The notes: a model not told the origin generated them from the letters alone. DNA of 64,000 bases from a virus (IMGVR_UViG_3300027710_000009), one strand, 5' to 3'. Positions 34,859 through 60,715 are shown, numbered from the stretch's first letter. Made by a program: numbers and translations.

Positions 34859-36166
34859 TCATAACTTTTCACCCACTGCAAAACCACGGAAGCCTTTGAA
34901 TCGCGGAAAGCGCAGGCTCCACGCACCGTCGCTGTCTTGATTCTGTGTTGCGGCATCTGCACGAACTTCAACTATGCTACCCAACACTTGAGCTTGGCTA
35001 CCCCAGATTGTTTCACGCAAGGCATCAGTAAGACCCGAGCCCACATTGGTACGGATAGTCTTACCGTCATCCACACCTTCCACAATCAAGGCACCCAGTT
35101 TGCCTGCGTTCTTGCCTGTGCCTTCTTCAAAGCCAACCACGGTCAAGCTCACTTCAATAAAAGGCTTTTGCTTGAGCCAGGCCACTGTGCGTTTGGTTTC
35201 GTAACGTGCTTCTGGATCTTTGATCATGATACCTTCGAAGCCGCCTGCCACTGCTTGCGTATTGATCATTTTGAAGCGAGCCAAACCTTTTGCAGTATCC
35301 AAGTCCACTAGCTCTTGTCCTACCACAGTGACATCTGGCATGTGTGCTTCAATGCTGTCGTACCAGGCTCGTAGTGTAGTGCTACGATCAATTTGACGTT
35401 GCTCACCTACGCCTGCTTGGAACTCACGCAGGGTCAACATGTCAAACAAGTTCAACATGGCGTCATTGGCTTTGACATCACTCTTGCGATGCACTTGCTT
35501 CATCAAGTCTTGAAAACTTGCACTCATAATCTCACCGTCCAAGACCATGGGTTCTGCAAACAGTGAGGCATGTTTGGCCAGTTGTTGTTTCACATGCGGA
35601 AAGTTGACCAGTTCTTTGCCATTGCGGCTGTACTGATCTACTTGTCCATTTGGGTACACAATAGTAATCACACGCACACCGTCCAGCTTGACTTCAATCA
35701 GCTTTTCACCTGTGACCTTGCTTTCATGATTGGCACCGTCATGTGCCAGTTGGCAAGAGAACACAGGCACATGATAACGTTCGTGGGCATGTTTGTTGAT
35801 TGTGCTGTCGCTGGTACCACAGCGCATGTCCTTGATTAGGATGCGTCGATACCACATGTTCCATTCTGCTTCTGTGGCGTCCTGGCGCATGACATTGATT
35901 TCAGTTTGTGCGGCATTGCCAGTGAGTCGGCGCTCACTCAATTCCTGTGCCACACGCCAGAAACGTTCTGCTTTTAATCCCTTGCCGTCGCCTGTCTTGG
36001 GCTCTACCTTTTTAACACCAAAGGTGATCATGGCATCATATGCGGCACGGAAGCCACGGAACAGTTCATCGTTGCCGTTTTCGCTTTCACGACGAACCAC
36101 TGCTTCTTTGATCAAGCGGCTGTTGTCGCCTTCCAGCTCTGCAATTACTTCCCATGGTTTAAGCAT
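34859..36166 (-). CDS. ATP-dependent DNA ligase
   Basis: KLDGVR adenylation motif I, EGIMIK motif IV, and a C-terminal OB fold carrying FPRF. Start refined to MLKPWEVIAELEG at 36166. Confidence 0.85.
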   Translation of the reverse strand: MLKPWEVIAELEGDNSRLIKEAVVRRESENGNDELFRGFRAAYDAMITFGVKKVEPKTGDGKGLKAERFWRVAQELSERRLTGNAAQTEINVMRQDATEAEWNMWYRRILIKDMRCGTSDSTINKHAHERYHVPVFSCQLAHDGANHESKVTGEKLIEVKLDGVRVITIVYPNGQVDQYSRNGKELVNFPHVKQQLAKHASLFAEPMVLDGEIMSASFQDLMKQVHRKSDVKANDAMLNLFDMLTLREFQAGVGEQRQIDRSTTLRAWYDSIEAHMPDVTVVGQELVDLDTAKGLARFKMINTQAVAGGFEGIMIKDPEARYETKRTVAWLKQKPFIEVSLTVVGFEEGTGKNAGKLGALIVEGVDDGKTIRTNVGSGLTDALRETIWGSQAQVLGSIVEVRADAATQNQDSDGAWSLRFPRFKGFRGFAVGEKL

Positions 36167-36527
36167 TTTGAACCTCTTCGATGTGGCGGCAAGCACCGCG
36201 GAATTTGAAACCAGCACAAGTGCAATTATACACTGAACCATCTTTTTCTACAACATATTTGGCGCCTTTGCTACCCTCAATGGTCCAGGTTGGGTTGGCA
36301 CTGACCTCAACTTTTGTATCAGTCCAGTTGTAGATGTCATTGCGCACTTCCACAAACTTGCGTCCGCGGGTGTCAATTTGAATTGGTGCTCGGAATGTCT
36401 GAGTGTCTTTGGGATTACCAAAACGAGCATAGGCATGCATCTTGTTTCGGGCATCATCCATCCAGTACACATGATTGCAGTTGAACTGGGTATCTGCCCA
36501 TTCTGTAATTTCTAAAAATGCTTTCAT
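36159..36527 (-). CDS. SWIM zinc-finger protein
   Basis: The C-terminal CTCAGFKFRGACRH matches the SWIM signature C-x-C-x(n)-C-x-H. Confidence 0.55.
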   Translation of the reverse strand: MKAFLEITEWADTQFNCNHVYWMDDARNKMHAYARFGNPKDTQTFRAPIQIDTRGRKFVEVRNDIYNWTDTKVEVSANPTWTIEGSKGAKYVVEKDGSVYNCTCAGFKFRGACRHIEEVQNA

Positions 36528-36840: not shown

Positions 36841-37038
36841 CTACTGTTCAGATCTGCCACTGGTGCAACTGTCATTCCAAAGACCCTGTGCTTGCTTTTT
36901 GTATTCGTACAGCTCAAGTTCATTCTTGTATTCATCTTCGGTGAGACCATGCCAGCCACAACACTTGCCGGTTGGACTACGACCACAACCACATCGGCCA
37001 ATGTCTTCTGGATTGTCTTTTACTCTCACTTGCATCAC
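36841..37038 (-). CDS. Small Cys-rich protein
   Basis: Contains CGCGRSPTGKCCGWHG. Confidence 0.35.
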   Translation of the reverse strand: MMQVRVKDNPEDIGRCGCGRSPTGKCCGWHGLTEDEYKNELELYEYKKQAQGLWNDSCTSGRSEQ

Positions 37039-37454
37039 TTGCCTTTTGTTTGCTCAGCAATTATTTTGTATCCTGTACCAGTAGGATGTACACCGTCAGC
37101 ACTCATGTGATTTTTAGGTCGAGCAATGATTGTATCCCCGTACTCTTTAGCAATCCGAACGATTGCATCGTGTGGAATAGGTTTACGATCCTGTCCTGGA
37201 TCAATCCAGTACACACGATCTCCTTTGATCGCTTCGCGCATTTTACGTAGTTCTGCTTCTGTCTTGACACCTTTATGATCATTAGCACCTAGACTGATGA
37301 TAATTGTTTTGGAGGGTTGGTTGGATGCTTTGGAAAGATAGTCCTTGTTCCATTGCCAACTATTCCATCCGCCTTTGCTGTAACTAACACACTCAGGTCT
37401 AGCCTGTGATGTGCCCACTGCTATTGAATCTCCGAGTATCAAACATTCTAACAT
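37035..37454 (-). CDS. SGNH/GDSL-family hydrolase
   Basis: GDSIA block I, GAND block III, and DGVHPT block V. Confidence 0.6.
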   Translation of the reverse strand: MLECLILGDSIAVGTSQARPECVSYSKGGWNSWQWNKDYLSKASNQPSKTIIISLGANDHKGVKTEAELRKMREAIKGDRVYWIDPGQDRKPIPHDAIVRIAKEYGDTIIARPKNHMSADGVHPTGTGYKIIAEQTKGK

Positions 37455-37465
37455 TTTGTCTCCAA

Positions 37466-37975
37466 TTAACTGTTAAGAACTTTAGCAACTGAATTCATAA
37501 CTGATGCAATGCGCCCAATGTCACGAAGTTGTTCCACTGTGTAGCCTTCTGAGTTCTTCAATGTGTCATAGTGTGCCTTAACACAGAAGTGACACTTGCC
37601 CACAATACTTGCGGCCAACGAGAATGCTTCAAAGTTTGCTTTGGTAGTTCCACCATGACTTGCAATAGCATTCATGCGTAACTGTGCTGGCAAACCTTTG
37701 AGTGCGGCATCATCTGCCATTTCAACATAGGGATACCATACGTTGTTCTGTGCCATGATGCTGGCGGCTGTCATTGCTGACTCTGCATGTACAGGAGCAT
37801 CTGCTAAAATTACTGACAGAATTTTGCCATTGCCTGTTGCGGCCAGTGCGGCTACGGCACATCCCATGGCCACATCTGCGTCTAGTGTGCTACGCAGTAA
37901 CACCGCATCTAGATTTAATTTTGTATCTTTGGCGTAGTCTGGTAACGCACCTTTTACTGATTCAATAAAATTCAT
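37466..37975 (-). CDS. AhpD-like / carboxymuconolactone decarboxylase-family protein
   Basis: CHFCVKAH matches the AhpD C-x-x-C-x-x-x-H active-site motif. ATG start at 37975 (MNFIESV); the longer track ORF starts at a TTG. Confidence 0.6.
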   Translation of the reverse strand: MNFIESVKGALPDYAKDTKLNLDAVLLRSTLDADVAMGCAVAALAATGNGKILSVILADAPVHAESAMTAASIMAQNNVWYPYVEMADDAALKGLPAQLRMNAIASHGGTTKANFEAFSLAASIVGKCHFCVKAHYDTLKNSEGYTVEQLRDIGRIASVMNSVAKVLNS

Positions 37976-37976
37976 T

Positions 37977-38189
37977 TTAATATTTTCCAGAAACAAAGTA
38001 TTTTTGCAACACTTCTAGTTTATCTTCATATTCCGCAATGTGCGCAATTTCAGTTTCCACAGCCGCCATCCAGTCAGTGTGATCATGAATGGCCATAGGG
38101 TTGTTCAACATGATCTCCACATTCATTTTGTGCTTGGTCAGTTGTGCTGAAAAGTTTGCTTCCAATGCACTAAGTAATTGTTGTTTCAT
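37977..38189 (-). CDS. Hypothetical protein
   Basis: ORF. Confidence 0.35.
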   Translation of the reverse strand: MKQQLLSALEANFSAQLTKHKMNVEIMLNNPMAIHDHTDWMAAVETEIAHIAEYEDKLEVLQKYFVSGKY

Positions 38190-38369
38190 CTATGCTCCTT
38201 GATAGAAGTTCAGTTCATCTTCTTCAGCAAGTTCTGGGGTGTTCCAAACATTACGATTGTTCCACTCGCGAATACGATCCAATCGTTCCTGTTCTGTCAT
38301 TTCATAACATCTAGGATTACGATCGGGCTGTCGCAATGTTTCAACACCTCGTTGAAATATTTCTAACAT
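38190..38369 (-). CDS. Small hypothetical protein (59 aa; not in the ORF track)
   Basis: Own translation begins MLEIFQRGVETLRQPDRNPRCYEMTEQERLDRIREW. TAATG coupling with ahpC. Coordinates approximate. Confidence 0.3.
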   Translation of the reverse strand: MLEIFQRGVETLRQPDRNPRCYEMTEQERLDRIREWNNRNVWNTPELAEEDELNFYQGA

Positions 38370-38908
38370 TAAAGTGTTTCACCGCCAACTGTACGGTTAC
38401 ATGCACACAGCTCGCCAGTTTGTAACGCATCAAGAACACGAAGTGTTTCTTCTGGGCTACGGCCTACGTTCAAGTTGTTGACTGTAACGTGTTGGATAAC
38501 GTTGTCTGGATCAACGATGAATGTTGCGCGAAGTGCGGCACCTGCTGGAGCATAGAAAACTCCTAATTGATCGATAAGACTCAACTCGCCACGTTGTGTG
38601 TCAGCGAACTGGTTGTGTGTGATTTTCTTCAAATCAGCATGAGCTGTTTGCCAGCTGACTTTACAGAACTCATTGTCTGTTGAACCTGTAAGCAGGACTG
38701 CATCACGGTCGGCAAAGTCACCTGTTAGTTTGTCGTAGGCTACAATTTCTGTAGGGCAAACGAATGTGAAGTCTTTTGGATAGTAAACAATTACCTTCCA
38801 CTTGCCGGGAAAGCTCTCATCTGTAATTTCGAAGAACGCATCTTCTGGCTGTCCAGGCTTGACACCCGTGACTGCGAATTTTTCTAACTTGTGTCCAACT
38901 GTTTTCAT
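38369..38908 (-). CDS. ahpC: Peroxiredoxin (AhpC/TSA family)
   Basis: Peroxidatic-Cys motif FTFVCPTEI, with a thioredoxin-fold alignment along the whole length. Confidence 0.85.
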   Translation of the reverse strand: MKTVGHKLEKFAVTGVKPGQPEDAFFEITDESFPGKWKVIVYYPKDFTFVCPTEIVAYDKLTGDFADRDAVLLTGSTDNEFCKVSWQTAHADLKKITHNQFADTQRGELSLIDQLGVFYAPAGAALRATFIVDPDNVIQHVTVNNLNVGRSPEETLRVLDALQTGELCACNRTVGGETL

Positions 38909-38986
38909 TTTGATTTCCTCTATAACAATGAATTAATGTGTATATTATACACGAACAAAAAAGCTCGTCAAGACTTTTTGGCACAA

Positions 38987-39544
38987 TTAAAATCGTACTG
39001 TGAAGCCTGTCATGACTCCGTCGTAATTAGCATCACCACGAACAGATTCATAGGCAAAGTTGATATCCAAGGTCTTGGACATGTGCAACACATAAACGGC
39101 ACGCCATCCACGTGTGTTGTCATTGTATTGGTCAGCATCAACTGCATTGCGATATCTCCAGCCTAATCTAGCAGTGCCAGGTCCAACGGCCATTCGCACA
39201 CCTGGTTCGGCACTGTAGTAGGCAAACTGATTGCCACCCACAGTTTTGATTCCTAGAGCAGTACGCACATAGGGTGTGATTACAGTGCCAGTGGGCAATA
39301 ACAAACTCGCACCACCTTCCAGTCGATTGATTGCAACTTTGGTAGCATCTGGAATCACAGTTTCAGCAATGGCATCAACAATAACGTTGTCCATGCGATG
39401 ACCCACAACAAACTGATATCCTGTGTCTGTTGCGCCAGTTGGACTTTTTCCAAACATGCTGTTGATGCCAGCAAAGGTCTGGGCTTGTGCAACTCCGGTG
39501 GTGATTGCTAGTAGTAGCAAAACATTTTTTAATTGATTAAACAT
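38987..39544 (-). CDS. Outer-membrane beta-barrel protein (OmpW/OmpA-like), paralogue 1
   Basis: Signal peptide MFNQLKNVLLLLAITTGVAQA, alternating amphipathic beta-strands, and a C-terminal aromatic ...GFTVRF. AGGAAAAC RBS. Confidence 0.6.
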   Translation of the reverse strand: MFNQLKNVLLLLAITTGVAQAQTFAGINSMFGKSPTGATDTGYQFVVGHRMDNVIVDAIAETVIPDATKVAINRLEGGASLLLPTGTVITPYVRTALGIKTVGGNQFAYYSAEPGVRMAVGPGTARLGWRYRNAVDADQYNDNTRGWRAVYVLHMSKTLDINFAYESVRGDANYDGVMTGFTVRF

Positions 39545-39600
39545 AAGTTTTCCTATAAGAACAGGGGCCAAGGCCCCTGTTGTGGTTGAATAGTTCTAGA

Positions 39601-40158
39601 TTAGAACTTGAAACCAACAGCGACGTTGGTAGCATTGTATGTGCTGTCACCGCGAACTTGATCGTAGCCTAGGCCAACAAAGTAGTTCTTGGTCAGTGCA
39701 TACTCAGCACCCAAACGGTATGTACGAGTGGTGTCTGCGTTTGCACTGTCTAGTGCGGCACGATAGCGATAGCCTGCTTTGACACTCAGTGCCGGAGTCA
39801 CCGCATACTTGATGCCTGGCTCCACTGAGTAGTAGGTATAGTTGGCCGAAGTCTTGAACTTCTCACCCACTGCACCACGACCATACACGCTGAACCCAGT
39901 GCCGCCAATTGGTTGCGTGGCTGTTAGGCCACCTTCCAGGCGTGTGTCGCTGAGATCGTTGTCAGTGTTGGTCTTTTGACGTAGACTGAAATCGGCCTTC
40001 AACAGTTGATTGATATCTGTGCCCATGGTTACCTTGGTGGCACGAGCATCTGCTGTACCATCAACGCCGTCACGACCACTGTATTCAACAGAGCCAAAAC
40101 CGCCTGCAAAGGCAGTGCTTGCGGCCAATAGTGCGGCCAATGCGATAAACTTCTTCAT
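39601..40158 (-). CDS. Outer-membrane beta-barrel protein, paralogue 2
   Basis: Signal peptide MKKFIALAALLAASTAFA and a C-terminal ...VGFKF. Same RBS type as paralogue 1. A GC-rich hairpin separates it from paralogue 1. Confidence 0.6.
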   Translation of the reverse strand: MKKFIALAALLAASTAFAGGFGSVEYSGRDGVDGTADARATKVTMGTDINQLLKADFSLRQKTNTDNDLSDTRLEGGLTATQPIGGTGFSVYGRGAVGEKFKTSANYTYYSVEPGIKYAVTPALSVKAGYRYRAALDSANADTTRTYRLGAEYALTKNYFVGLGYDQVRGDSTYNATNVAVGFKF

Positions 40159-40257
40159 TTGAAAATTTCCTTTTTGAAAATGTGCGCTGTTACGCAACAC
40201 ATGGATTATATATGCTGGTTACTACTGATGTCAAATAAAAAGGCACCAAAGCGACTG

Positions 40258-40977
40258 TCATGACCAGTATTTGCTGTTGTCCAAACTGTCCCAGTACTTC
40301 TTGTTGTTGCGGTTAACAAAGTTCTGGACCAAGTACTTGGCCATACCAAAATAGCCCATCTTCTTAAACCTACGGCTGTCTTGTCCAAAATAGTGATTGA
40401 GTATGCTAAACTTTTTTGGGCTGTAGCATCTAGATAGGAAGTAGTCTTCAGAAGTTGACATCTGCTCAGGAAAGCCGCCGTACTCTTCAAACCGGTCTCT
40501 GCGTGTGAGCATGAATGCGCCCACAGCAAATGGACTGAAATGTTTTAGAACGCGATTGATACCGTTGAACACAGCAAAGCCAATGCTGGCACGTTTGTCG
40601 TTGTCATAGCATTTGATGTTCAGCCCTAGTAGATCTAGGTTCTTAGATTCCAATTTGGCTACTGCATCACGAATCGTGTTGACATTGAAGAAGCGAACAT
40701 CAGCATCAATGAACAAGATGTAGGGTGTGGTAACCAAGGCAGCTCCGCGGTTCTTGGCCTGGCTGACTGGACCACCATCAATGATTTCAACATTCAATTT
40801 ACCCTTTAACTTTTGAATCACTTCTCGAGTGTTATCTGTAGAACAGTCTGCAATAATAATTCTAGTACTACCAATCAGTTGATTGCGTAGATGTAATAAC
40901 AAGTATCCAATGTAATTCTCCTCGTTCTTGCAAGGGATCACGATTGTAATTTTTTCACTTAGGATTGTTTCTTGCAT
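40258..40977 (-). CDS. Family-2 glycosyltransferase (GT-A fold)
   Basis: ITIVIPCKNEE in the N-terminal Rossmann region, followed by the FIDADV (DxD) motif. Confidence 0.7.
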   Translation of the reverse strand: MQETILSEKITIVIPCKNEENYIGYLLLHLRNQLIGSTRIIIADCSTDNTREVIQKLKGKLNVEIIDGGPVSQAKNRGAALVTTPYILFIDADVRFFNVNTIRDAVAKLESKNLDLLGLNIKCYDNDKRASIGFAVFNGINRVLKHFSPFAVGAFMLTRRDRFEEYGGFPEQMSTSEDYFLSRCYSPKKFSILNHYFGQDSRRFKKMGYFGMAKYLVQNFVNRNNKKYWDSLDNSKYWS

Positions 40978-40998
40978 TCTGCTACCACCTTGAAATTC

Positions 40999-41883
40999 TT
41001 AAACTTTAGTTGCCACGTGATTGTGTTCAACACCTGCTGGCAGGTCTGTTGATCCGGAAACACCAGCTCTATTTTTCCGGGTTGATCTTGCGGGTCGTTG
41101 ATGTGTACCGCTATTAATATCATCAGCCACATTGTCATGCTCCTTGGTCCAGGTCACAATTTCCCAGCGACCGTCATGATGTTCTACCAGTGCTGTGCAT
41201 GACTCAACCCAGTCGCCGTCATTCATGTATGTGACACCATTGATTTCTTTTATCTCTGCGTGATGTATGTGTCCGCAGATCACACCATCAAAGCCACGCT
41301 TCTTACAGTAGTTGGCCAAGTTCTCTTCAAACTTGAACACAAAGTCTACTGCTTTTTTGACCTTGTGCTTAAGAAACTTGCTAAGGCTAAAGTACCCAAA
41401 ACCCATACGGCGACGAATCCAATTAAATTTATTGTTGAGGTTAAGAACAATGTCATATGCTTTGTCTCCTAAAAATGCTATCCACGGGGCCAGTCTAGTA
41501 ATGCCGTCAAACAAGTCTCCGTGTACCACAAGATAGTGTTTGCCGTCCACACCTATGTGTTCTGTTTGATTGCACACTTCAATAAGGCCAAAGCCAATGC
41601 CCAGGGGTATGAGTGGTCTTAAAAACTCATCGTGATTGCCTGCCACATACACCACACGGGTACCGCGCTTGGCGTGACCCATGACTCTGCGTACCACATT
41701 GGTATGGCTTTGTTTCCATCGCCATTTGTTTTGTTGTATTCGCCATGCGTCAATGATATCCCCTACCATGTAGAGTGTGTCGCATGTGTTGTGTTTGAGA
41801 AAGTTGTTGAGTTGCTCTGCCTTGCAATCTCTGGTGCCAAGGTGTACGTCAGAAATAAAAATGCTACGATAAGTTTTCTGCAT
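40999..41883 (-). CDS. lpxH: UDP-2,3-diacylglucosamine hydrolase LpxH-like metallophosphoesterase
   Basis: Motifs SDVHLG, VGDIID, GNHDE and ICGHIHH match the LpxH order D-x-H...D...N-H...H...H-x-H. Confidence 0.65.
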   Translation of the reverse strand: MQKTYRSIFISDVHLGTRDCKAEQLNNFLKHNTCDTLYMVGDIIDAWRIQQNKWRWKQSHTNVVRRVMGHAKRGTRVVYVAGNHDEFLRPLIPLGIGFGLIEVCNQTEHIGVDGKHYLVVHGDLFDGITRLAPWIAFLGDKAYDIVLNLNNKFNWIRRRMGFGYFSLSKFLKHKVKKAVDFVFKFEENLANYCKKRGFDGVICGHIHHAEIKEINGVTYMNDGDWVESCTALVEHHDGRWEIVTWTKEHDNVADDINSGTHQRPARSTRKNRAGVSGSTDLPAGVEHNHVATKV

Positions 41884-41935
41884 AGCAGTATTTATCGTAG
41901 CATTGTGTTACAAAGATTACAGTTGTGTTACGAAC

Positions 41936-42094
41936 TTAAATCCTTACCAAAGTCCATTTATGTGTAAAAGGTTTGCCTTCGGCCTTGTGTTTCGCAATCT
42001 TGCGGAATTCTTCTTGACGAAGCTCCGCAATCTTTTTGGCATCGTGGTCGACGCAAGCCCTGTACAGTTCAACTAAAAGTTTTTTCTGTTTCAT
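41936..42094 (-). CDS. Small hypothetical protein (52 aa; not in the ORF track)
   Basis: GGAGG RBS. Own translation begins [29 protein letters not shown]. Coordinates approximate. Confidence 0.3.
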
Positions 42095-42117: not shown

Positions 42118-42762
42118 TTATCTTTTCATTAGATCGTTTGTAAAGTCTAACAGTAGTTGATGATGATAGCCGTTATGATAGTGTGGTTTGAGATAGTTGT
42201 GCATGTCATACCACCACTGTTCGCTTTCAGGATGGCATCCCATTATTCCAATACGATCCTGATATATGGCCATCGGGTCACCGTTTGCGTAACGGGCAAC
42301 AGTGTCAAATTTGCTTTCATCGCCTGCCAGAGCACAGCCGTCATAGAAGTACATTTTCATATCTTCACCTTGCCAGTTTACAGGGCAGGCCTTGGCATGT
42401 GGGCGGCGTGTGTCTGTGTTGGGTTGTGTGATGTACTGCACAGCATCCACTCCGTCTAGGATATCAAAGTAATGGGACCCTGCCCAGTAGGCTCCCATGC
42501 AAATGCCCAGGTATCGGCCGCCATTGTTTACAAAGTTTTTGATTCGATGTTCGTGGTGCTTCATTAGAAAATGATAGCTTTCACTATCCCCGTCGCCTCC
42601 GGGAAAAGCCACAATGTCCACGCCATCAAAGAAATCTTTTTCCATGTTCTGCTTGGTGAAGATTTTGAATTTATAATACTCGGAAAGGGCCTCCATCATT
42701 GCATTTCCGCATTGCACAGACGCCCTGGGCTGGTACAAAAACATTGCGATGGTGGGTTTCAT
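42118..42762 (-). CDS. Class-I glutamine-amidotransferase-like (DJ-1/PfpI/BPL_N-like) protein
   Basis: [11 protein letters not shown] ... [15 protein letters not shown] resembles the nucleophile-elbow region of GATase1-like folds. Start refined to MKPTIAMF. Confidence 0.45.
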
Positions 42763-42770
42763 AACAGTAT

Positions 42771-43019
42771 TTACTCGTCCTTGGATTGTCGTTTTTTGAT
42801 CTTCATTCCTACAAAGGTTCCACAGAATGCTCCTATCATGGCAGGAATAAGCAGCCAATGATTTGTGGTATAACTGATAACTGCAACACTACCAAGTAGG
42901 TAACAGGCCACGCTCCAGAAACTGGCGCCCATCACATTATCTTTTGCAACACATCTTAGATAGTAGGTGTACACAACGTCAAGAAAAAATATAGAAAAAA
43001 ATGTTATTATGTAATTCAC
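42771..43019 (-). CDS. Hypothetical polytopic membrane protein
   Basis: Hydrophobic ORF with a GTG start. Confidence 0.35.
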   Translation of the reverse strand: MNYIITFFSIFFLDVVYTYYLRCVAKDNVMGASFWSVACYLLGSVAVISYTTNHWLLIPAMIGAFCGTFVGMKIKKRQSKDE

Positions 43020-43026
43020 AGAAGTA

Positions 43027-43052
43027 TTAGAAAAGAATGGGCCCGGAGGCCC
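43027..43052 (-). terminator. Intrinsic terminator of the tmRNA gene
   Basis: Minus-strand GGGCCUCCGGGCCC hairpin followed by AUUCUUUUCU. Confidence 0.6.
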
Positions 43053-43461
43053 ATGGTTGTTTATTTGACAGGGTAAGTCCTACCCCGCTGGTTTCGCTGT
43101 TTAGGCGAAAGCTGCCTCAGTGCGAGCAGACTTGGAACCGCCGAAACGGAAACCTTTGCCTACTGTTACTTTAACACCAGATTGTGTATTTGCTTTTGCA
43201 TTTACTTTTTTTGCGTCTACGGCCGAGTTCCCCCAACCCTACGGTTTCTGCCTTACCGTGCTGTCCACTTGCTTACTCTTTGCCCTGTCGAAACCATGAC
43301 TGGCCCATCATAAAAGGACTAGTGCAAACACTACCAGTACAACAACTACCCCTATCGCCAAACTACCCAGGTTGTCATTCATACCAATCTCCTTATGGTG
43401 GACCAGGCGGGAGTCGAACCCGCGTCCAGAACACTTTTCTATCCGCTTCATACAGCAATAA
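43027..43461 (-). ncRNA. ssrA: Circularly permuted (two-piece) tmRNA gene, organised as acceptor piece, then spacer, then coding piece
   Basis: The 3' end, ...UCUGGACGCGGGUUCGACUCCCGCCUGGUCCACCA at 43396, is nearly identical to the tmRNA 3' end GGACGCGGGUUCAACUCCCGCCAGCUCCACCA. An 89-nt spacer follows. Then GGGCCAGUCAUGGUUUCGACAGGG at 43306 matches the tmRNA 5' end GGGGCUGAUUCUGGAUUCGACGGG. The two form a 7-bp acceptor stem with a G3:U70 pair. Downstream, UAGAC-GCA introduces an open tag frame with no start codon, ending ...TEAAFA-UAA. The gene has its own promoter and terminator. Confidence 0.7.
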
Positions 43462-43466
43462 CTTAC

Positions 43467-43495
43467 AGTATATATTTATTCAGGGGAGTTGTCAA
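43467..43495 (-). promoter_or_regulatory. Sigma70 promoter of the tmRNA gene (TTGACA-N17-TATACT)
   Basis: Minus strand: TTGACAACTCCCCTGAATAAATATATACT. The predicted transcription start is about 65 nt upstream of the CCA end. Confidence 0.55.
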
Positions 43496-46615: not shown

Positions 46616-47461
46616 TTACTTGTTGTCAGTCTGTGCGGCCAATGCGGCCTTAACTGCGGCTTCTACTGCAACACGGATCAAGTCAGCAGTTGCGGTATCA
46701 GTTGCGGCTTCCACTTGCACAGGTGCAATAAAAGCTTCGTCTGGGTGTACACCCAATTCACCAATCACTTCGTAGCGGCAAGCACGACCCTTGGCGTTGT
46801 TGTAGTCAGTTGGGATGCTTACAACATCACGTGGGTTGATCTTAAGGATCACTGTGCGGCTATCGTGACCACCAAAGTGTGGCAAGTACTCTTTGGAGCA
46901 GAAGTGCAAGCCTGCGGAACAGGTACGATTTTGGTCGTCGTCCACTTCGTTGCGTTCCATTTCCACGATCTTGCCAGGACTGTTATCCATAGTACCCGAA
47001 TGGCAGTCCAAGAAGTCCTTGCGAACTTTCTTGTAAGCCAAGAAGTAACCGTCTGGAGTCAAAGGCAAGTTGCCCTTTTCCAAGAAGCCGTACAGTTCTG
47101 TCACAGCTCGCTTGGATGGGTTTTGCATCAAGTTCTCCATGAACAAGATCAGTGGCTCCACTGGAAAACCATCTTGATACATTTCAATCAAGCGGCTTGT
47201 GAGCACACCAGCCATTTCACGTTCTTTGTAGAACACTTTGCTACCTTGGATGGCCACATGGCCTGCACCGTATGCCAGGATCTCCTTGGCAGGGTCAACC
47301 ACCTGCTTCACAGTATCCCAGTCATTGTCCTTGATAGCTTGTTTCAGCTTCTCATATCCAATGTGGGTGGATGTTACGGTATGGGGTTGGTTGTCAATGA
47401 TAACAACAATGTTCTTGCCCTGAATCAGATATGGAAATGCCATTTTAAGCCTCTTTGTCAA
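46616..47461 (-). CDS. rIIB: rIIB-like protein
   Basis: 281 aa, immediately downstream of the rIIA-like gene (16-nt overlap). The blocks FMENLMQNPSKRAV, DGYFLAYKKVRKDF, DCHSGTMDNSPGKIVEM, TCSAGLHFCSKEYL and INPRDVVSIPTDYNNAKGRACRYEV recall T4 rIIB. Confidence 0.7.
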   Translation of the reverse strand: MTKRLKMAFPYLIQGKNIVVIIDNQPHTVTSTHIGYEKLKQAIKDNDWDTVKQVVDPAKEILAYGAGHVAIQGSKVFYKEREMAGVLTSRLIEMYQDGFPVEPLILFMENLMQNPSKRAVTELYGFLEKGNLPLTPDGYFLAYKKVRKDFLDCHSGTMDNSPGKIVEMERNEVDDDQNRTCSAGLHFCSKEYLPHFGGHDSRTVILKINPRDVVSIPTDYNNAKGRACRYEVIGELGVHPDEAFIAPVQVEAATDTATADLIRVAVEAAVKAALAAQTDNK

Positions 47462-49625
47462 TCAAGTTAATGTACTGTGCCACTGCCACCGCATTGATGT
47501 CATAGTCACGCAAACTGCTCAGGAGTGGATAGCGATTACGGATGGCAGTCAATTCATCTGTAAGGCTCTGGACAACCGTGTCTACGTCAACTGGTGTTGC
47601 ATAGTCACGGCACAATTTTTCTAAACTGTACTTGTCAACTTTTGCATCGTCAGCGCCTTTGAACTGAGTCAAAAACTTTGAGTATGCACTGTTGGGCGAT
47701 ACCAGTTTGGTAATATCGTTATTGTAGCGGAAATACTTGTTTGCGTCAATCTGTTTCAGCGCACATTGTCGCACAATTTTTGGATCCAATTTTGCCAAAA
47801 CTTCACGGATATGATCCTGCACATTGATCCAGTTCTTTTGGGTTTCAATGAACTTGATGTCCGATTTACGAACACCCAAGATAGCAATACCATGCAAACC
47901 TGGGATGCCTGATTCAGTAACCATGTCACTGAAGTGACGCATGTTTTGTGTGATAGGCGCACCATTTGATATCACAGTAAAGCCACTGAGTGGCAGGTAG
48001 TAGTAGGTTTCGCTGGCATCAAATTGATCAGCTTTGCCTGCATCCTTCCACACCAGCTCACGTTCTTTGTGATAACCACCGTAGCCACGTTGAGCCAAGC
48101 GCAGGATACTTACATTAGAACCCATACCAGCGCCGCCAGTCTTGCGGTCTTTGAGCATGAGCTCACTGGCTACCATGCATTGGGCCGCAGGAGGATTGCG
48201 CAGGTCTGCAAAGAAGCCAATGGTGTCCATGGTCTTGCCTTTCACAGCAGGACTCAAAACGTACACATTACTGGTATGGCTCTTGCTTGGCAATGCCACA
48301 CCCTTGGCTTCGGCATTGCGCCAGTGATACTTGGCACGGCTTAACGCACCAATTTTGGTATCGTTGGTAACAATGATAGTGCTAGGGTCAATGCTGAATT
48401 CCCACTCTTGCTCGTAACTGCTATGACTCTTGTCGTACACACGCATGGGCTTGAGTTCAGAACAGGTAGCACCACCACGACTCTTTTGGAAAGCCAACAC
48501 TTCAATGTTGTACTTGGCGGCCAAGTCTTTGACATCAAATTTGAACGGCACACCACGCATGTAATGAGTGTTGGTAGTGTCAATCAAATCAAAGTTGGTA
48601 TCCTGTGCATACTTTATGGCCGCACTCTTGAACAAGGTTTCGTTGGCCTTCTTCATCAAGAAGTAGGTCTTGTCCCAGTCGTTGGTGATAAGATCTGCTT
48701 CCAGTGCCACGTGAACAGCCAGCTGGGCATTGAGTGCTTCTAGCTTGTTGCGGATAGCGTTGATGGTCTGTGGAATGTAGCTCAAGCCTTCGCGGCTGGC
48801 TTGGAAGTCCAGTTCGCCAATGTCAAAGTGCATTTCCAAGCCACAGTTCAAGATCTTGTAGAGATCGCCTAGTGCAGATTCTGCATTAGGCACATCAATT
48901 GGATAGGCAATATTGCCCATCACAGCACGGCTGGAACGACTGTCAGTGTAATGCACACCTGGAATGATGTTCTTTTCTTTGTACTCAACGTCACGGAACT
49001 TGAAGTCGCCCTCACCGCCTGATACCACAGGGCGCAGGGCAAAGTAGGTGTACACATGACGAGCTTCGTCTTCAAACTTGTAGAAGTCGCTACGGCTGTC
49101 TACTGCAAACTTGACTTCAACACCTGCAGGTTGGTCAGTAGGCTCTGAGTGCATGAGCACGATGCTGGGCACACCTTCACCATTGATGAACGCACTGTAC
49201 ACACCGCGGGTGCCATCTTTGATAGCAGTCACAGTGAAATTGTCTGTGTAGGAGAAGGGGCTCTTGGAACCCAAGCCCAGGGCACCAATGAACGCATTGG
49301 ATTCAGTCTTGGTTGACTCAAAGTAAGTGGTGTAGATGCTTTGCACTTGTTCGTGAGTAAGGCCAGTGCCGTAGTCACGAATTGAAAAAGTAGGGTCAAT
49401 CACATTGGGCAAGTGTACGTCAAAAGGCACATGACTACGGCCAGCGGCTGTATGTGAGTCTACTGCATTGCAAGAGAGTTCACGCACAATAGCACGGATC
49501 TTGTTTGCGTACAAGCCAGAGGAAAGAATGTTGAAGGCCTTGGCAGAATTGCGAATACGGAACTCGCCAATTTCGCCTACGTTTGACAGAACAGCTTCGT
49601 GGGCTGGTGCATTGTTGATGATCAA
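47445..49625 (-). CDS. rIIA: rIIA-like protein with N-terminal GHKL (HATPase_c) ATPase domain
   Basis: 726 aa, the same size as T4 rIIA. N-box RELSCNAVDS, G1 IRDYGTGLT, G2 GALGLGSKS. Adjacent to rIIB. Confidence 0.7.
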   Translation of the reverse strand: MIINNAPAHEAVLSNVGEIGEFRIRNSAKAFNILSSGLYANKIRAIVRELSCNAVDSHTAAGRSHVPFDVHLPNVIDPTFSIRDYGTGLTHEQVQSIYTTYFESTKTESNAFIGALGLGSKSPFSYTDNFTVTAIKDGTRGVYSAFINGEGVPSIVLMHSEPTDQPAGVEVKFAVDSRSDFYKFEDEARHVYTYFALRPVVSGGEGDFKFRDVEYKEKNIIPGVHYTDSRSSRAVMGNIAYPIDVPNAESALGDLYKILNCGLEMHFDIGELDFQASREGLSYIPQTINAIRNKLEALNAQLAVHVALEADLITNDWDKTYFLMKKANETLFKSAAIKYAQDTNFDLIDTTNTHYMRGVPFKFDVKDLAAKYNIEVLAFQKSRGGATCSELKPMRVYDKSHSSYEQEWEFSIDPSTIIVTNDTKIGALSRAKYHWRNAEAKGVALPSKSHTSNVYVLSPAVKGKTMDTIGFFADLRNPPAAQCMVASELMLKDRKTGGAGMGSNVSILRLAQRGYGGYHKERELVWKDAGKADQFDASETYYYLPLSGFTVISNGAPITQNMRHFSDMVTESGIPGLHGIAILGVRKSDIKFIETQKNWINVQDHIREVLAKLDPKIVRQCALKQIDANKYFRYNNDITKLVSPNSAYSKFLTQFKGADDAKVDKYSLEKLCRDYATPVDVDTVVQSLTDELTAIRNRYPLLSSLRDYDINAVAVAQYINLIDKEA

Positions 49626-60514: not shown

Positions 60515-60715
60515 GTGTTTCTCCTTAATAGACGATTGTTCGATAATGTACTGCATGACCCTACCATAGGCATCATGTTTTACATTATACATTTATTTAT
60601 GTTGCAGAGCAACATTCTCTAATGGTTTCTACTAAGATTAGTAACCATTCACTAAATTTTTGCATCCAAATATGCCCACTAAATATTACGTATCCATACT
60701 TCGAAGGAGATCATC

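Follow-up and report, generated by a model that had tools for sequence, protein, structure and literature searches.

A PlcP-glycosyltransferase gene pair in large T4-like phages as a candidate viral form of bacterial lipid renovation

We describe here a pair of adjacent genes in a 64,000-nucleotide (nt) stretch of viral DNA (IMGVR_UViG_3300027710_000009; "the window" below means this whole stretch), which encode a metallophosphoesterase (MPE) of the PlcP family and a small glycosyltransferase (GT) and which, judged by their sequences and their neighbours, form a two-gene phage cassette, plcP plus glycosyltransferase. In bacteria under phosphate stress, PlcP cleaves phospholipids to diacylglycerol, and the glycosyltransferase Agt converts the diacylglycerol into glucosyl- or glucuronosyl-diacylglycerol (PMC4796936, PMC8528852). 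On balance we favor the view that the phage cassette copies this bacterial lipid renovation, that its family 2 glycosyltransferase (GT2) is a substitute for Agt, and that phosphorus would be freed in the process. The pair belongs to segment 38987-41883, whose four open reading frames (ORFs) all lie on the minus strand and are transcribed in the order MPE, GT2, OMP1 and OMP2, the last two coding for predicted outer-membrane proteins (OMPs). An earlier note on this segment had placed all four genes correctly, although transcription runs opposite to the order it gave, and had read all four genes as one module in which a lipid-A enzyme, a glycosyltransferase and two barrels edit the host envelope. 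The two genes of the proposed cassette are as follows (lengths in amino acids, aa).

40999..41883, minus strand: plcP-like metallophosphoesterase (MPE), 294 aa; Pfam Metallophos; automatically annotated as LpxH
40258..40977, minus strand: GT2 glycosyltransferase, 239 aa; small, soluble, GT-A fold; Pfam PF00535

By family membership the MPE is a PlcP-type metal-dependent phospholipase C. It matches Pfam Metallophos (E 1e-11), and a search for the metal-binding set DxH, GD, GNH[DE], H, GH and GHxH recovered the full calcineurin-like complement (D12-x-H14, G41-D42, G82-N-H-D-E, H121-G-D and G204-H-I-H-H), which is invariant in the alignment. The protein is 55.1% identical to Pseudomonas aeruginosa PA3219 (E 1.7e-96) and 45.5% identical to the Sinorhizobium meliloti PlcP orthologue (E 5e-85); a BLASTP E < 1e-40 to a characterised PlcP defines the family in PMC4796936, and the phage protein falls well inside that limit. 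Indeed, it is nearer to PA3219 than the two reference PlcPs, at 46.6% identity, are to one another. These references were taken from two PLSDB "plasmid" records that contain chromosomal regions, NZ_CP042268.1 and CP090106.1: one holds the P. aeruginosa PA3217-PA3223 region, and the other, under the name pSymB, is an S. meliloti replicon of 3.7 Mb on which sinI/sinR are found. PA3219 was recognised as the gene between cyaB and azoR3 that is followed by a GT family 1 gene (PA3218), and the S. meliloti reference as the gene beside sinR/sinI, corresponding to SMc00171. Since our 46.6% reproduces the 46% printed for this pair in PMC8528852, both identities are confirmed.

The fit to LpxH is of another order. 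On the LpxH equivalog models of NCBIfam the MPE scores 47.8 bits (NF003743, cut-off 134 bits) and 38.6 bits (TIGR01854, cut-off 190 bits), under both thresholds, and its BLASTP match to Escherichia coli LpxH is 22.5% identity over the first 120 aa only. The motifs DVHLG, GNHDE and GHIHH, which the earlier note had taken for the full LpxH set, are all present, yet they are generic calcineurin-like phosphoesterase motifs rather than an LpxH-specific set, and E. coli LpxH and the solved LpxH chains themselves carry GNRD where the MPE carries GNHDE. At the position of the LpxH lid, from HGD to GHxH, the MPE has about 70 inserted residues; these align with PlcP sequences and not with that lid. The earlier note had named grouping with generic phosphatases that lack the lid, together with soluble OMPs, as grounds for giving up its view; an LpxH-like lid insertion is kept and the OMPs are predicted membrane barrels. 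Against its lipid-A pathway enzyme stand the scores and the 55% identity to PA3219. RefSeq calls PA3219, a characterised PlcP, a "UDP-2,3-diacylglucosamine diphosphatase", which accounts for the LpxH label on all of the phage copies; a PHROGs search returned only generic labels for the MPE and the GT2. The MPE also ends in a basic, low-complexity tail of about 45 aa (residues about 250-294; 40999-41135, minus strand) that is kept in close relatives and absent from the homologues of phages Mosig and S-SRM01; bacterial PlcP tails are shorter and unrelated to it.

The linkage of plcP with a glycosyltransferase extends well beyond this one locus. Among 80 IMG/VR contigs whose MPE is 74-92% identical to ours, 78 have sufficient downstream sequence, and in 77 of these a glycosyltransferase directly follows plcP: the small GT2 of the window in 43 and a GT4 of about 335 aa in 34 (counts that allow for overlapping gene starts). 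This GT4 shares 40.7% identity with P. aeruginosa Agt1, PA3218 (E 1e-81), and 42% with the GT4 of a Pseudomonas locus (L024). GT2 and GT4 occupy the same slot and are mutually exclusive, behind MPEs of the same identity range. This exchange is best seen in contig L128, which is collinear with the window (BPL_N-like gene, OMP2-like gene, MPE, an 89% identical OMP1, AhpC, AhpD and SGNH) and has a GT4 in place of the GT2. The most economical reading is that Agt has undergone non-orthologous replacement by a GT2 of the same role. There is precedent for such a replacement, since some bacterial plcP genes lie upstream of non-Agt glycosyltransferases that make glycosyl-diacylglycerols (PMC4796936) and the phage GT2 itself passes the Pfam GT21 model (Glyco_transf_21; 26.2 bits, cut-off 21.7).

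A scan seeded with a distant member of the GT2 family brought in 64 further viral loci, with GT2s 38-81% identical to that of the window, and a PlcP-like gene is directly adjacent in 63, upstream of the GT2 in some lineages and downstream in others. At locus L168 an MPE 43% identical to ours overlaps a GT2 that is 50% identical, and at L170 the order is GT2, a 106-aa gene, MPE. A viral scan seeded with another GT2 relative, P0271, gave no match. In Pelagibacter phage Mosig the MPE homologue (47% identical) is divergent from, and back-to-back with, the phage pstS. The gene is also common in metagenomes, where at least 8000 MPE candidates were scored, all at E 1e-5 or better; among those listed, the top 120 have 80% identity or more.

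Taking one genome per bacterial species, we found 80 homologues of the MPE at 46-58% identity in Alpha-, Beta- and Gammaproteobacteria, and a GT4 is the next gene in all eight that were inspected. From their gene order, these loci have the plcP-agt arrangement of the lipid-renovation operons described in PMC4796936. Pho-box-like repeats of the form GTCAY-N6-GTCAY lie upstream of 16 of the 80, where by our own estimate about 0.1 would be expected.

The GT2 is a member of its Pfam family (PF00535, Glycos_transf_2; 67 bits, E 3e-18, cut-off 23.3), and its AlphaFold model (pLDDT 94.8) has a GT-A fold. In 58 members of the family, the DxD motif D91-A-D93 and the residues E177-D178 are conserved. 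Family members are 235-245 aa long, and 65 clusters of them have E < 1e-30. No GT4 was found anywhere in the 64,000 nt. When plasmids and chromids were searched with tblastn, only matches of 29-30% identity to the GT2 appeared; at one of them, on a Parasedimentitalea plasmid (L247, 3209-4643), a relative 30% identical to the GT2 stands downstream of a PAP2-family lipid phosphatase gene and upstream of a two-component system, which hints, and only hints, at a further phosphatase-glycosyltransferase pairing.

The region upstream of plcP holds three elements.

41889..41896, minus strand: GATAAATA, which fits the T4-type late promoter NATAAATA, 5 nt 5' of the plcP ATG
41903..41932, minus strand: gene-specific tandem direct repeat CGTAAC / TGTAAT / TGTAAC (GTAAY-N6-GTAAY), candidate operator
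41936..42094, minus strand: conserved 52-aa ORF immediately upstream of plcP; gene call in the identical JGI contig

The gap between the MPE and GT2 genes is 21 nt and contains a Shine-Dalgarno-like AAGGTGG before the GT2 ATG, so that the two are probably co-transcribed. On the minus strand of the window NATAAATA occurs at ten sites, eight of them within 40 nt upstream of ORFs, and it precedes the structural genes for proteins of 2277, 2110 and 307 aa. Sites at 60601, 56158, 30260, 20201, 12897, 8818 and 2502 (minus strand) stand 1-33 nt 5' of ORFs. Such a distribution is consistent with the T4-type late-promoter pattern, and because the motif also precedes structural genes, the copy at plcP resembles a late promoter of that type. 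Relatives, too, keep TAAATA in front of plcP; that it might be a sigma-70 -10 element under a PhoB-type box was considered and set aside, as the same NATAAATA precedes the structural genes. The GTAAY-N6-GTAAY repeat takes up the intergenic space that separates the 52-aa ORF from plcP. Of 71 distinct regions upstream of related loci, 33 contain it at 34-57 nt from the ATG; its background frequency is 0.004 per 100 nt. Elsewhere in the window the stricter TGTAAY-N5-TGTAAY, with one mismatch allowed, has one other match, which is the chance level, and the looser GTAAY-N6-GTAAY two further sites. The phage repeat has the same 11-bp phase as the bacterial Pho-box-like GTCAY repeats and differs from them by one base per half-site.

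If the phage enzymes act as their bacterial counterparts do, PlcP would cleave host glycerophospholipids to diacylglycerol and a phosphorylated head group, and the phosphorus of the head group would be recycled into nucleotides for phage DNA synthesis. The GT2 would cap the diacylglycerol with a sugar, so that the membrane could be rebuilt from phosphorus-free glycolipid; as an inverting GT2 in place of a retaining GT4 Agt, it would be expected to make a beta-linked rather than an alpha-linked glycolipid. The cassette would be expressed late in infection. The target is most likely a membrane glycerophospholipid, and not lipopolysaccharide (LPS) or lipid A, because the MPE is PlcP-type and its GT partner sits in the Agt slot. 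About 0.7 million phosphorus atoms go into a single genome of about 360 kb, and the phospholipid phosphorus per cell in two marine isolates is 0.5-2.6 million atoms (PMC4796936); the two quantities are of the same order, and the gain could therefore be material. The most likely purpose is phosphorus economy rather than receptor masking.

Several observations weigh against this interpretation. The GT2 has no BLAST similarity to PA3218 (Agt1) or to the GT4s beside bacterial plcP, and the nearest solved structures to its model are TarS, TarP and the polyprenol-phosphate mannosyltransferase PcManGT, which are teichoic-acid and polyprenol-phosphate glycosyltransferases; neither sequence nor fold points to one acceptor. 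The GT2 has no transmembrane segment, and when an amphipathic C-terminal helix was sought in it the hydrophobic moment was unremarkable. Relatives of the GT2 at 32% identity or less do not adjoin an MPE, and the linkage is therefore confined to the GT2 subfamily. Late expression depends on reading as a promoter a motif that lies just 5 nt from the plcP ATG. A scan of the window for the enterobacterial Pho box (CTGTCAT-N4-CTGTCAT, up to 3 mismatches) gave 6 matches against 9 expected, none of them at plcP. Were the host a cyanobacterium, phosphatidylglycerol would be the sole phospholipid available. Finally, a phage PlcP could serve to weaken the membrane or to change the cell surface against other phages.

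How far do other explanations account for these data? That the MPE is an LpxH-type UDP-2,3-diacylglucosamine diphosphatase which, with the GT2 and the barrels, alters lipid A or LPS so as to exclude superinfecting phages or mask receptors is suggested by its best solved-structure matches by sequence, which are LpxH (E 4e-4), by LpxH models as the top NCBIfam matches, by the LpxH labels that JGI and GenBank give the homologues, and by the insertion between HGD and GHxH where LpxH has its lid; phage glycosyltransferases, moreover, are often found in O-antigen conversion, and the GT2 has a GtrB-like PHROG match (E 3e-6). Set against these, the equivalog scores are far below their cut-offs, the protein has GNHDE and not GNRD, a similarity of 22.5% over 120 aa compares with 55% over the full length of PA3219, RefSeq gives a characterised PlcP this same wrong name, the GT slot of sister phages is filled by the diacylglycerol glycosyltransferase Agt, and the OMPs are no conserved partners. 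The sequence evidence thus largely refutes LpxH, and we regard this explanation as scarcely credible. One part of the earlier note that holds is that the gene products would act on the host envelope; its proposed target, LPS or lipid A, gives way to glycerophospholipid in view of the PlcP identity and the Agt slot. Almost as improbable is that the four genes form one envelope module in which the barrels move a product or substrate of PlcP and GT2, as a phosphate or head-group channel or a lipid-handling OMP. The four adjoin in the window, OMP homologues occur near plcP in a few relatives at varying positions, and, by our own reading of the strands, the alternation that faces the lumen carries many invariant residues (Arg, Lys, Glu and Asp); but no more than 4 of 80 relatives have an OMP homologue close to plcP, other MPE-GT2 lineages lack one, OMP1 has a separate sigma-70 promoter and a hairpin behind it, and no enzyme-type or specific-channel barrel is among the structural matches.

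Two further explanations accept that the MPE is a PlcP, and we consider both unlikely, the second a little more so. In one, the GT2 acts on polyprenol phosphate, LPS or capsule, protein or phage DNA, and its pairing with PlcP reflects other chemistry or co-regulation. The structures closest to the GT2 model do act on ribitol-phosphate polymers and polyprenol phosphate, similarity to Agt is lacking, and the 30% relative lies beside a PAP2 phosphatase that could act on a polyprenol phosphate or lipid A phosphate and not on phosphatidate. Yet GT2 and the Agt-like GT4 exclude each other from one slot behind MPEs of 74-92% identity, adjacency holds at 63 of 64 loci through an inversion of gene order and down to 38% identity, and bacterial plcP pairs with several unrelated glycolipid synthases (PMC4796936). 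In the other, the chemistry is as we propose and the purpose differs: a block to superinfection, resistance to grazers or antimicrobials, or preparation for lysis or assembly. Lipid-remodelled bacteria interact differently with predators, phages and antibiotics according to PMC9457565, PMC9938194 and PMC8528852, the phage plcP has no canonical Pho box, and its late-type promoter motif is not obviously phosphate-controlled. Pointing back to phosphorus are the position of the gene beside pstS in Mosig, the Pho-box-like repeats of the bacterial orthologues, from which the phage repeat is one base off per half-site, and a store of phospholipid phosphorus per cell that is comparable in size to the demand of a genome of about 360 kb.

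The two barrels, which are the remaining genes of the segment, are laid out as follows.

40205..40234, minus strand: consensus sigma-70 promoter upstream of OMP1, TTGACA-18-TATAAT, 12/12
39601..40158, minus strand: OMP1 gene from its likely ATG at 40158 (ORF 40200..39601), 185 aa
39561..39580, minus strand: GC-rich hairpin between OMP1 and OMP2, terminator-like, weak U-tract
38987..39544, minus strand: OMP2 gene from its likely ATG at 39544 (ORF 39571..38987), 185 aa

OMP1 matches Pfam OMP_b-brl (PF13505; 34 bits, cut-off 28.7), and OMP2 has no Pfam match of its own. The two align at 35% identity over 114 aa (E about 1e-14), have signal-peptide-like N-termini (MKKFIALAALLAASTAFA in OMP1, MFNQLKNVLLLLAITTGVAQA in OMP2) and both end in Phe; by sequence they are paralogues, of which OMP2 has diverged. 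The AlphaFold model of OMP1, built with 41 homologues (pLDDT 90.8, pTM 0.81), consists of a signal helix and 10 beta-strands, and the top 50 PDB matches listed for it by Foldseek are all transmembrane beta-barrels, natural or designed, among them OmpG, OpcA, NspA, KdgM/NanC, FapF and the designed TMB10. No enzyme-type barrel or specific channel family is among the structural matches listed. On this model OMP1 is an outer-membrane beta-barrel, and OMP2 is assigned as one solely through its paralogy to OMP1. The earlier note was right about the tandem barrel paralogues, and its case for a Gram-negative host stands in so far as barrels point to a host cell that has an outer membrane. The hairpin it saw between them is also real (ACAGGGGCC-TT-GGCCCCTGT; dG about -16 kcal/mol, z -2.4), though its U-tract is not clean.

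What does not survive is the single four-gene module, which synteny rules out as a conserved unit: just 4 of 80 relatives have an OMP homologue within 6 kb of the MPE, and OMP1 has an early-type promoter of its own. Where OMP homologues do lie near plcP their positions differ (L094, L107, L128, L139 and L165-L167), and they are absent from other phage lineages with the MPE-GT2 pair. Neither tblastn of OMP1 against 50,697 deposited phage records nor PHROGs, for either OMP, yielded a homologue. An OMP1 homologue (44% identical) was seen on a 329-kb contig (L243, 5001-5564) with AdoHcyase, radical SAM and sugar epimerase genes; this cellular-looking contig may represent a donor or host lineage. 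Given the 4/80 synteny, the OMP1 sigma-70 promoter, the hairpin and the absence from other MPE-GT2 lineages, the barrels are best regarded as separate accessory genes, and from its sequence signals OMP1 looks like an independently transcribed, moron-like unit.

The barrels share this variable region with AhpC and AhpD, also regarded as separate accessory genes. The AhpC-like peroxiredoxin (38369-38908, minus strand) and the AhpD-like alkylhydroperoxidase (37466-37996, minus strand) make a peroxide-detoxifying pair on the phage, found near plcP in 13 of 80 related contigs. The AhpC promoter (TTGACG-16-TATAAT, 11/12, at 38944-38971), like that of OMP1, appears to be of an early sigma-70 type. 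Beside the pair is a gene for a small SGNH/GDSL-type hydrolase of 139 aa (37035-37454, minus strand), slightly under the Pfam cut-off, which is seen again near the AhpC/AhpD genes of relatives and is possibly an esterase or lipase. On the other side of the cassette, the C-terminal coding sequence of the 52-aa ORF is found again upstream of plcP in many relatives, and in L165-L167 a 53-aa gene takes its position. A BPL_N/class-I amidotransferase-like protein gene (42118-42858, minus strand) is often 5' of plcP in relatives, as is a gene for an 82-aa hydrophobic protein (42771-43019, minus strand); the trio of BPL_N-like, 82-aa and 52-aa ORFs precedes plcP in 32 of 80 relatives and also in L165-L167. 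Contig L165 further encodes a heme oxygenase and a ferredoxin-dependent bilin reductase (1189-2410), together with HSP20 and ClpS, a few kb from its block of OMP, BPL_N, plcP and agt.

The phage origin of the window, as the earlier note had it, is borne out by the baseplate, tail and virion proteins and the RIIA homologue that it encodes. An ATP-dependent DNA ligase (34859-36241, minus strand) and the RIIA homologue (47445-49625, minus strand) are typical T4-like accessory genes and confirm a T4-like phage type. The closest cultured relatives are T4-like cyanophages, at about 44% identity, and a nucleotide search of the region against deposited phages gave no match. An identical stretch is part of a JGI contig of 137 kb; contigs related to it are as long as 330-380 kb. 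The window also carries a permuted (two-piece) transfer-messenger RNA (tmRNA) gene at 43171-43457 on the minus strand (Rfam RF04321, 97.3 bits; ARAGORN agrees), with a near-consensus sigma-70 promoter at 43467-43495 and a terminator-like hairpin at 43037-43054. Permuted tmRNAs are known from Alphaproteobacteria, some Betaproteobacteria and cyanobacteria, and this one may be a clue to the host.

Compared with the bacterial PlcP-Agt systems (S. meliloti SMc00171; Phaeobacter MED193_17359; SAR11 HTCC7211 PB7211_983/960; P. aeruginosa PA3219/PA3218; Burkholderia cenocepacia BCAL2364-2366), the phage cassette has the same PlcP family and the same plcP-then-GT order, and in its sister phages the partner is a true homologue of Agt (41% identity to PA3218). 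It differs in being encoded by a lytic T4-like phage, in the replacement of the GT4 Agt by an unrelated small GT2, in a late-promoter motif and another tandem repeat in place of a canonical Pho box, and in the 45-aa basic C-terminal tail of its PlcP. With LpxH it shares the calcineurin-like phosphoesterase superfamily, the order of the metal motifs, an insertion at the lid position and the automatic annotation, whereas the lid sequence itself is unrelated to that of LpxH and conserved with PlcP. Phages are known to carry host-derived phosphate-stress genes (pstS, phoA and phoH in T4-like cyanophages and pelagiphages), which likewise ease the phosphorus limitation of phage DNA synthesis; unlike these, PlcP would mine an internal store, the membrane lipid, instead of importing external phosphate, and would need a second enzyme to keep the membrane intact. 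The GT2 resembles, in fold and expected mechanism, the inverting GT-A enzymes among the GT2/GT21 diacylglycerol glycosyltransferases, such as the cyanobacterial glucosyl-diacylglycerol (GlcDAG) synthase MgdA and the rhizobial processive Pgt, and is much smaller than these (239 aa) and lacks a membrane-spanning segment. Pgt-type genes, too, follow plcP in some bacteria (PMC4796936). As for the barrels, they recall the OMPs of temperate phages (lambda Lom, Ail/OmpX-like proteins and lambdoid porins), which are likewise small, moron-like, equipped with a signal peptide and a C-terminal Phe and driven by host-type promoters of their own; the OMP1 model has 10 strands and not 8, and here a tandem paralogue pair sits in a large lytic T4-like phage.

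We found no publication that combines PlcP with phage-encoded or auxiliary genes in the literature searched, which lacks most subscription journals. Two virome studies count viral lpxH under LPS biosynthesis, and a pelagimyophage survey reads phage glycosyltransferases as O-antigen modifiers. The pathway and the logic of phage auxiliary metabolic genes (AMGs) are known; what appears to be new is the presence of the cassette in phages, its abundance there, and the small GT2 partner. Current AMG catalogues probably place the gene wrongly, given that plcP is consistently mislabelled as an enzyme of lipid A. A wider proposition, which we put forward tentatively and to which we give slightly less than an even chance, is that large T4-like phages of aquatic bacteria carry out a late lipid renovation that mines membrane phosphorus, that the small soluble GT2s, almost obligately paired with PlcP in several phage lineages, are a new family of beta-glycosyl-diacylglycerol synthases, and that the viral "lpxH" in virome LPS counts is this gene.

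A starved cell has few large stores of phosphorus, and its membrane phospholipid is one of them. If our proposal is true, the cassette would represent a new kind of auxiliary metabolism, in which phospholipid phosphorus is turned into nucleotides and the membrane is patched with sugar lipids, and the GT2, small and easy to express, would be a candidate for a new glycolipid synthase. Viral production in lakes and oceans would then be tied to the lipid chemistry of the host and to phosphorus cycling.

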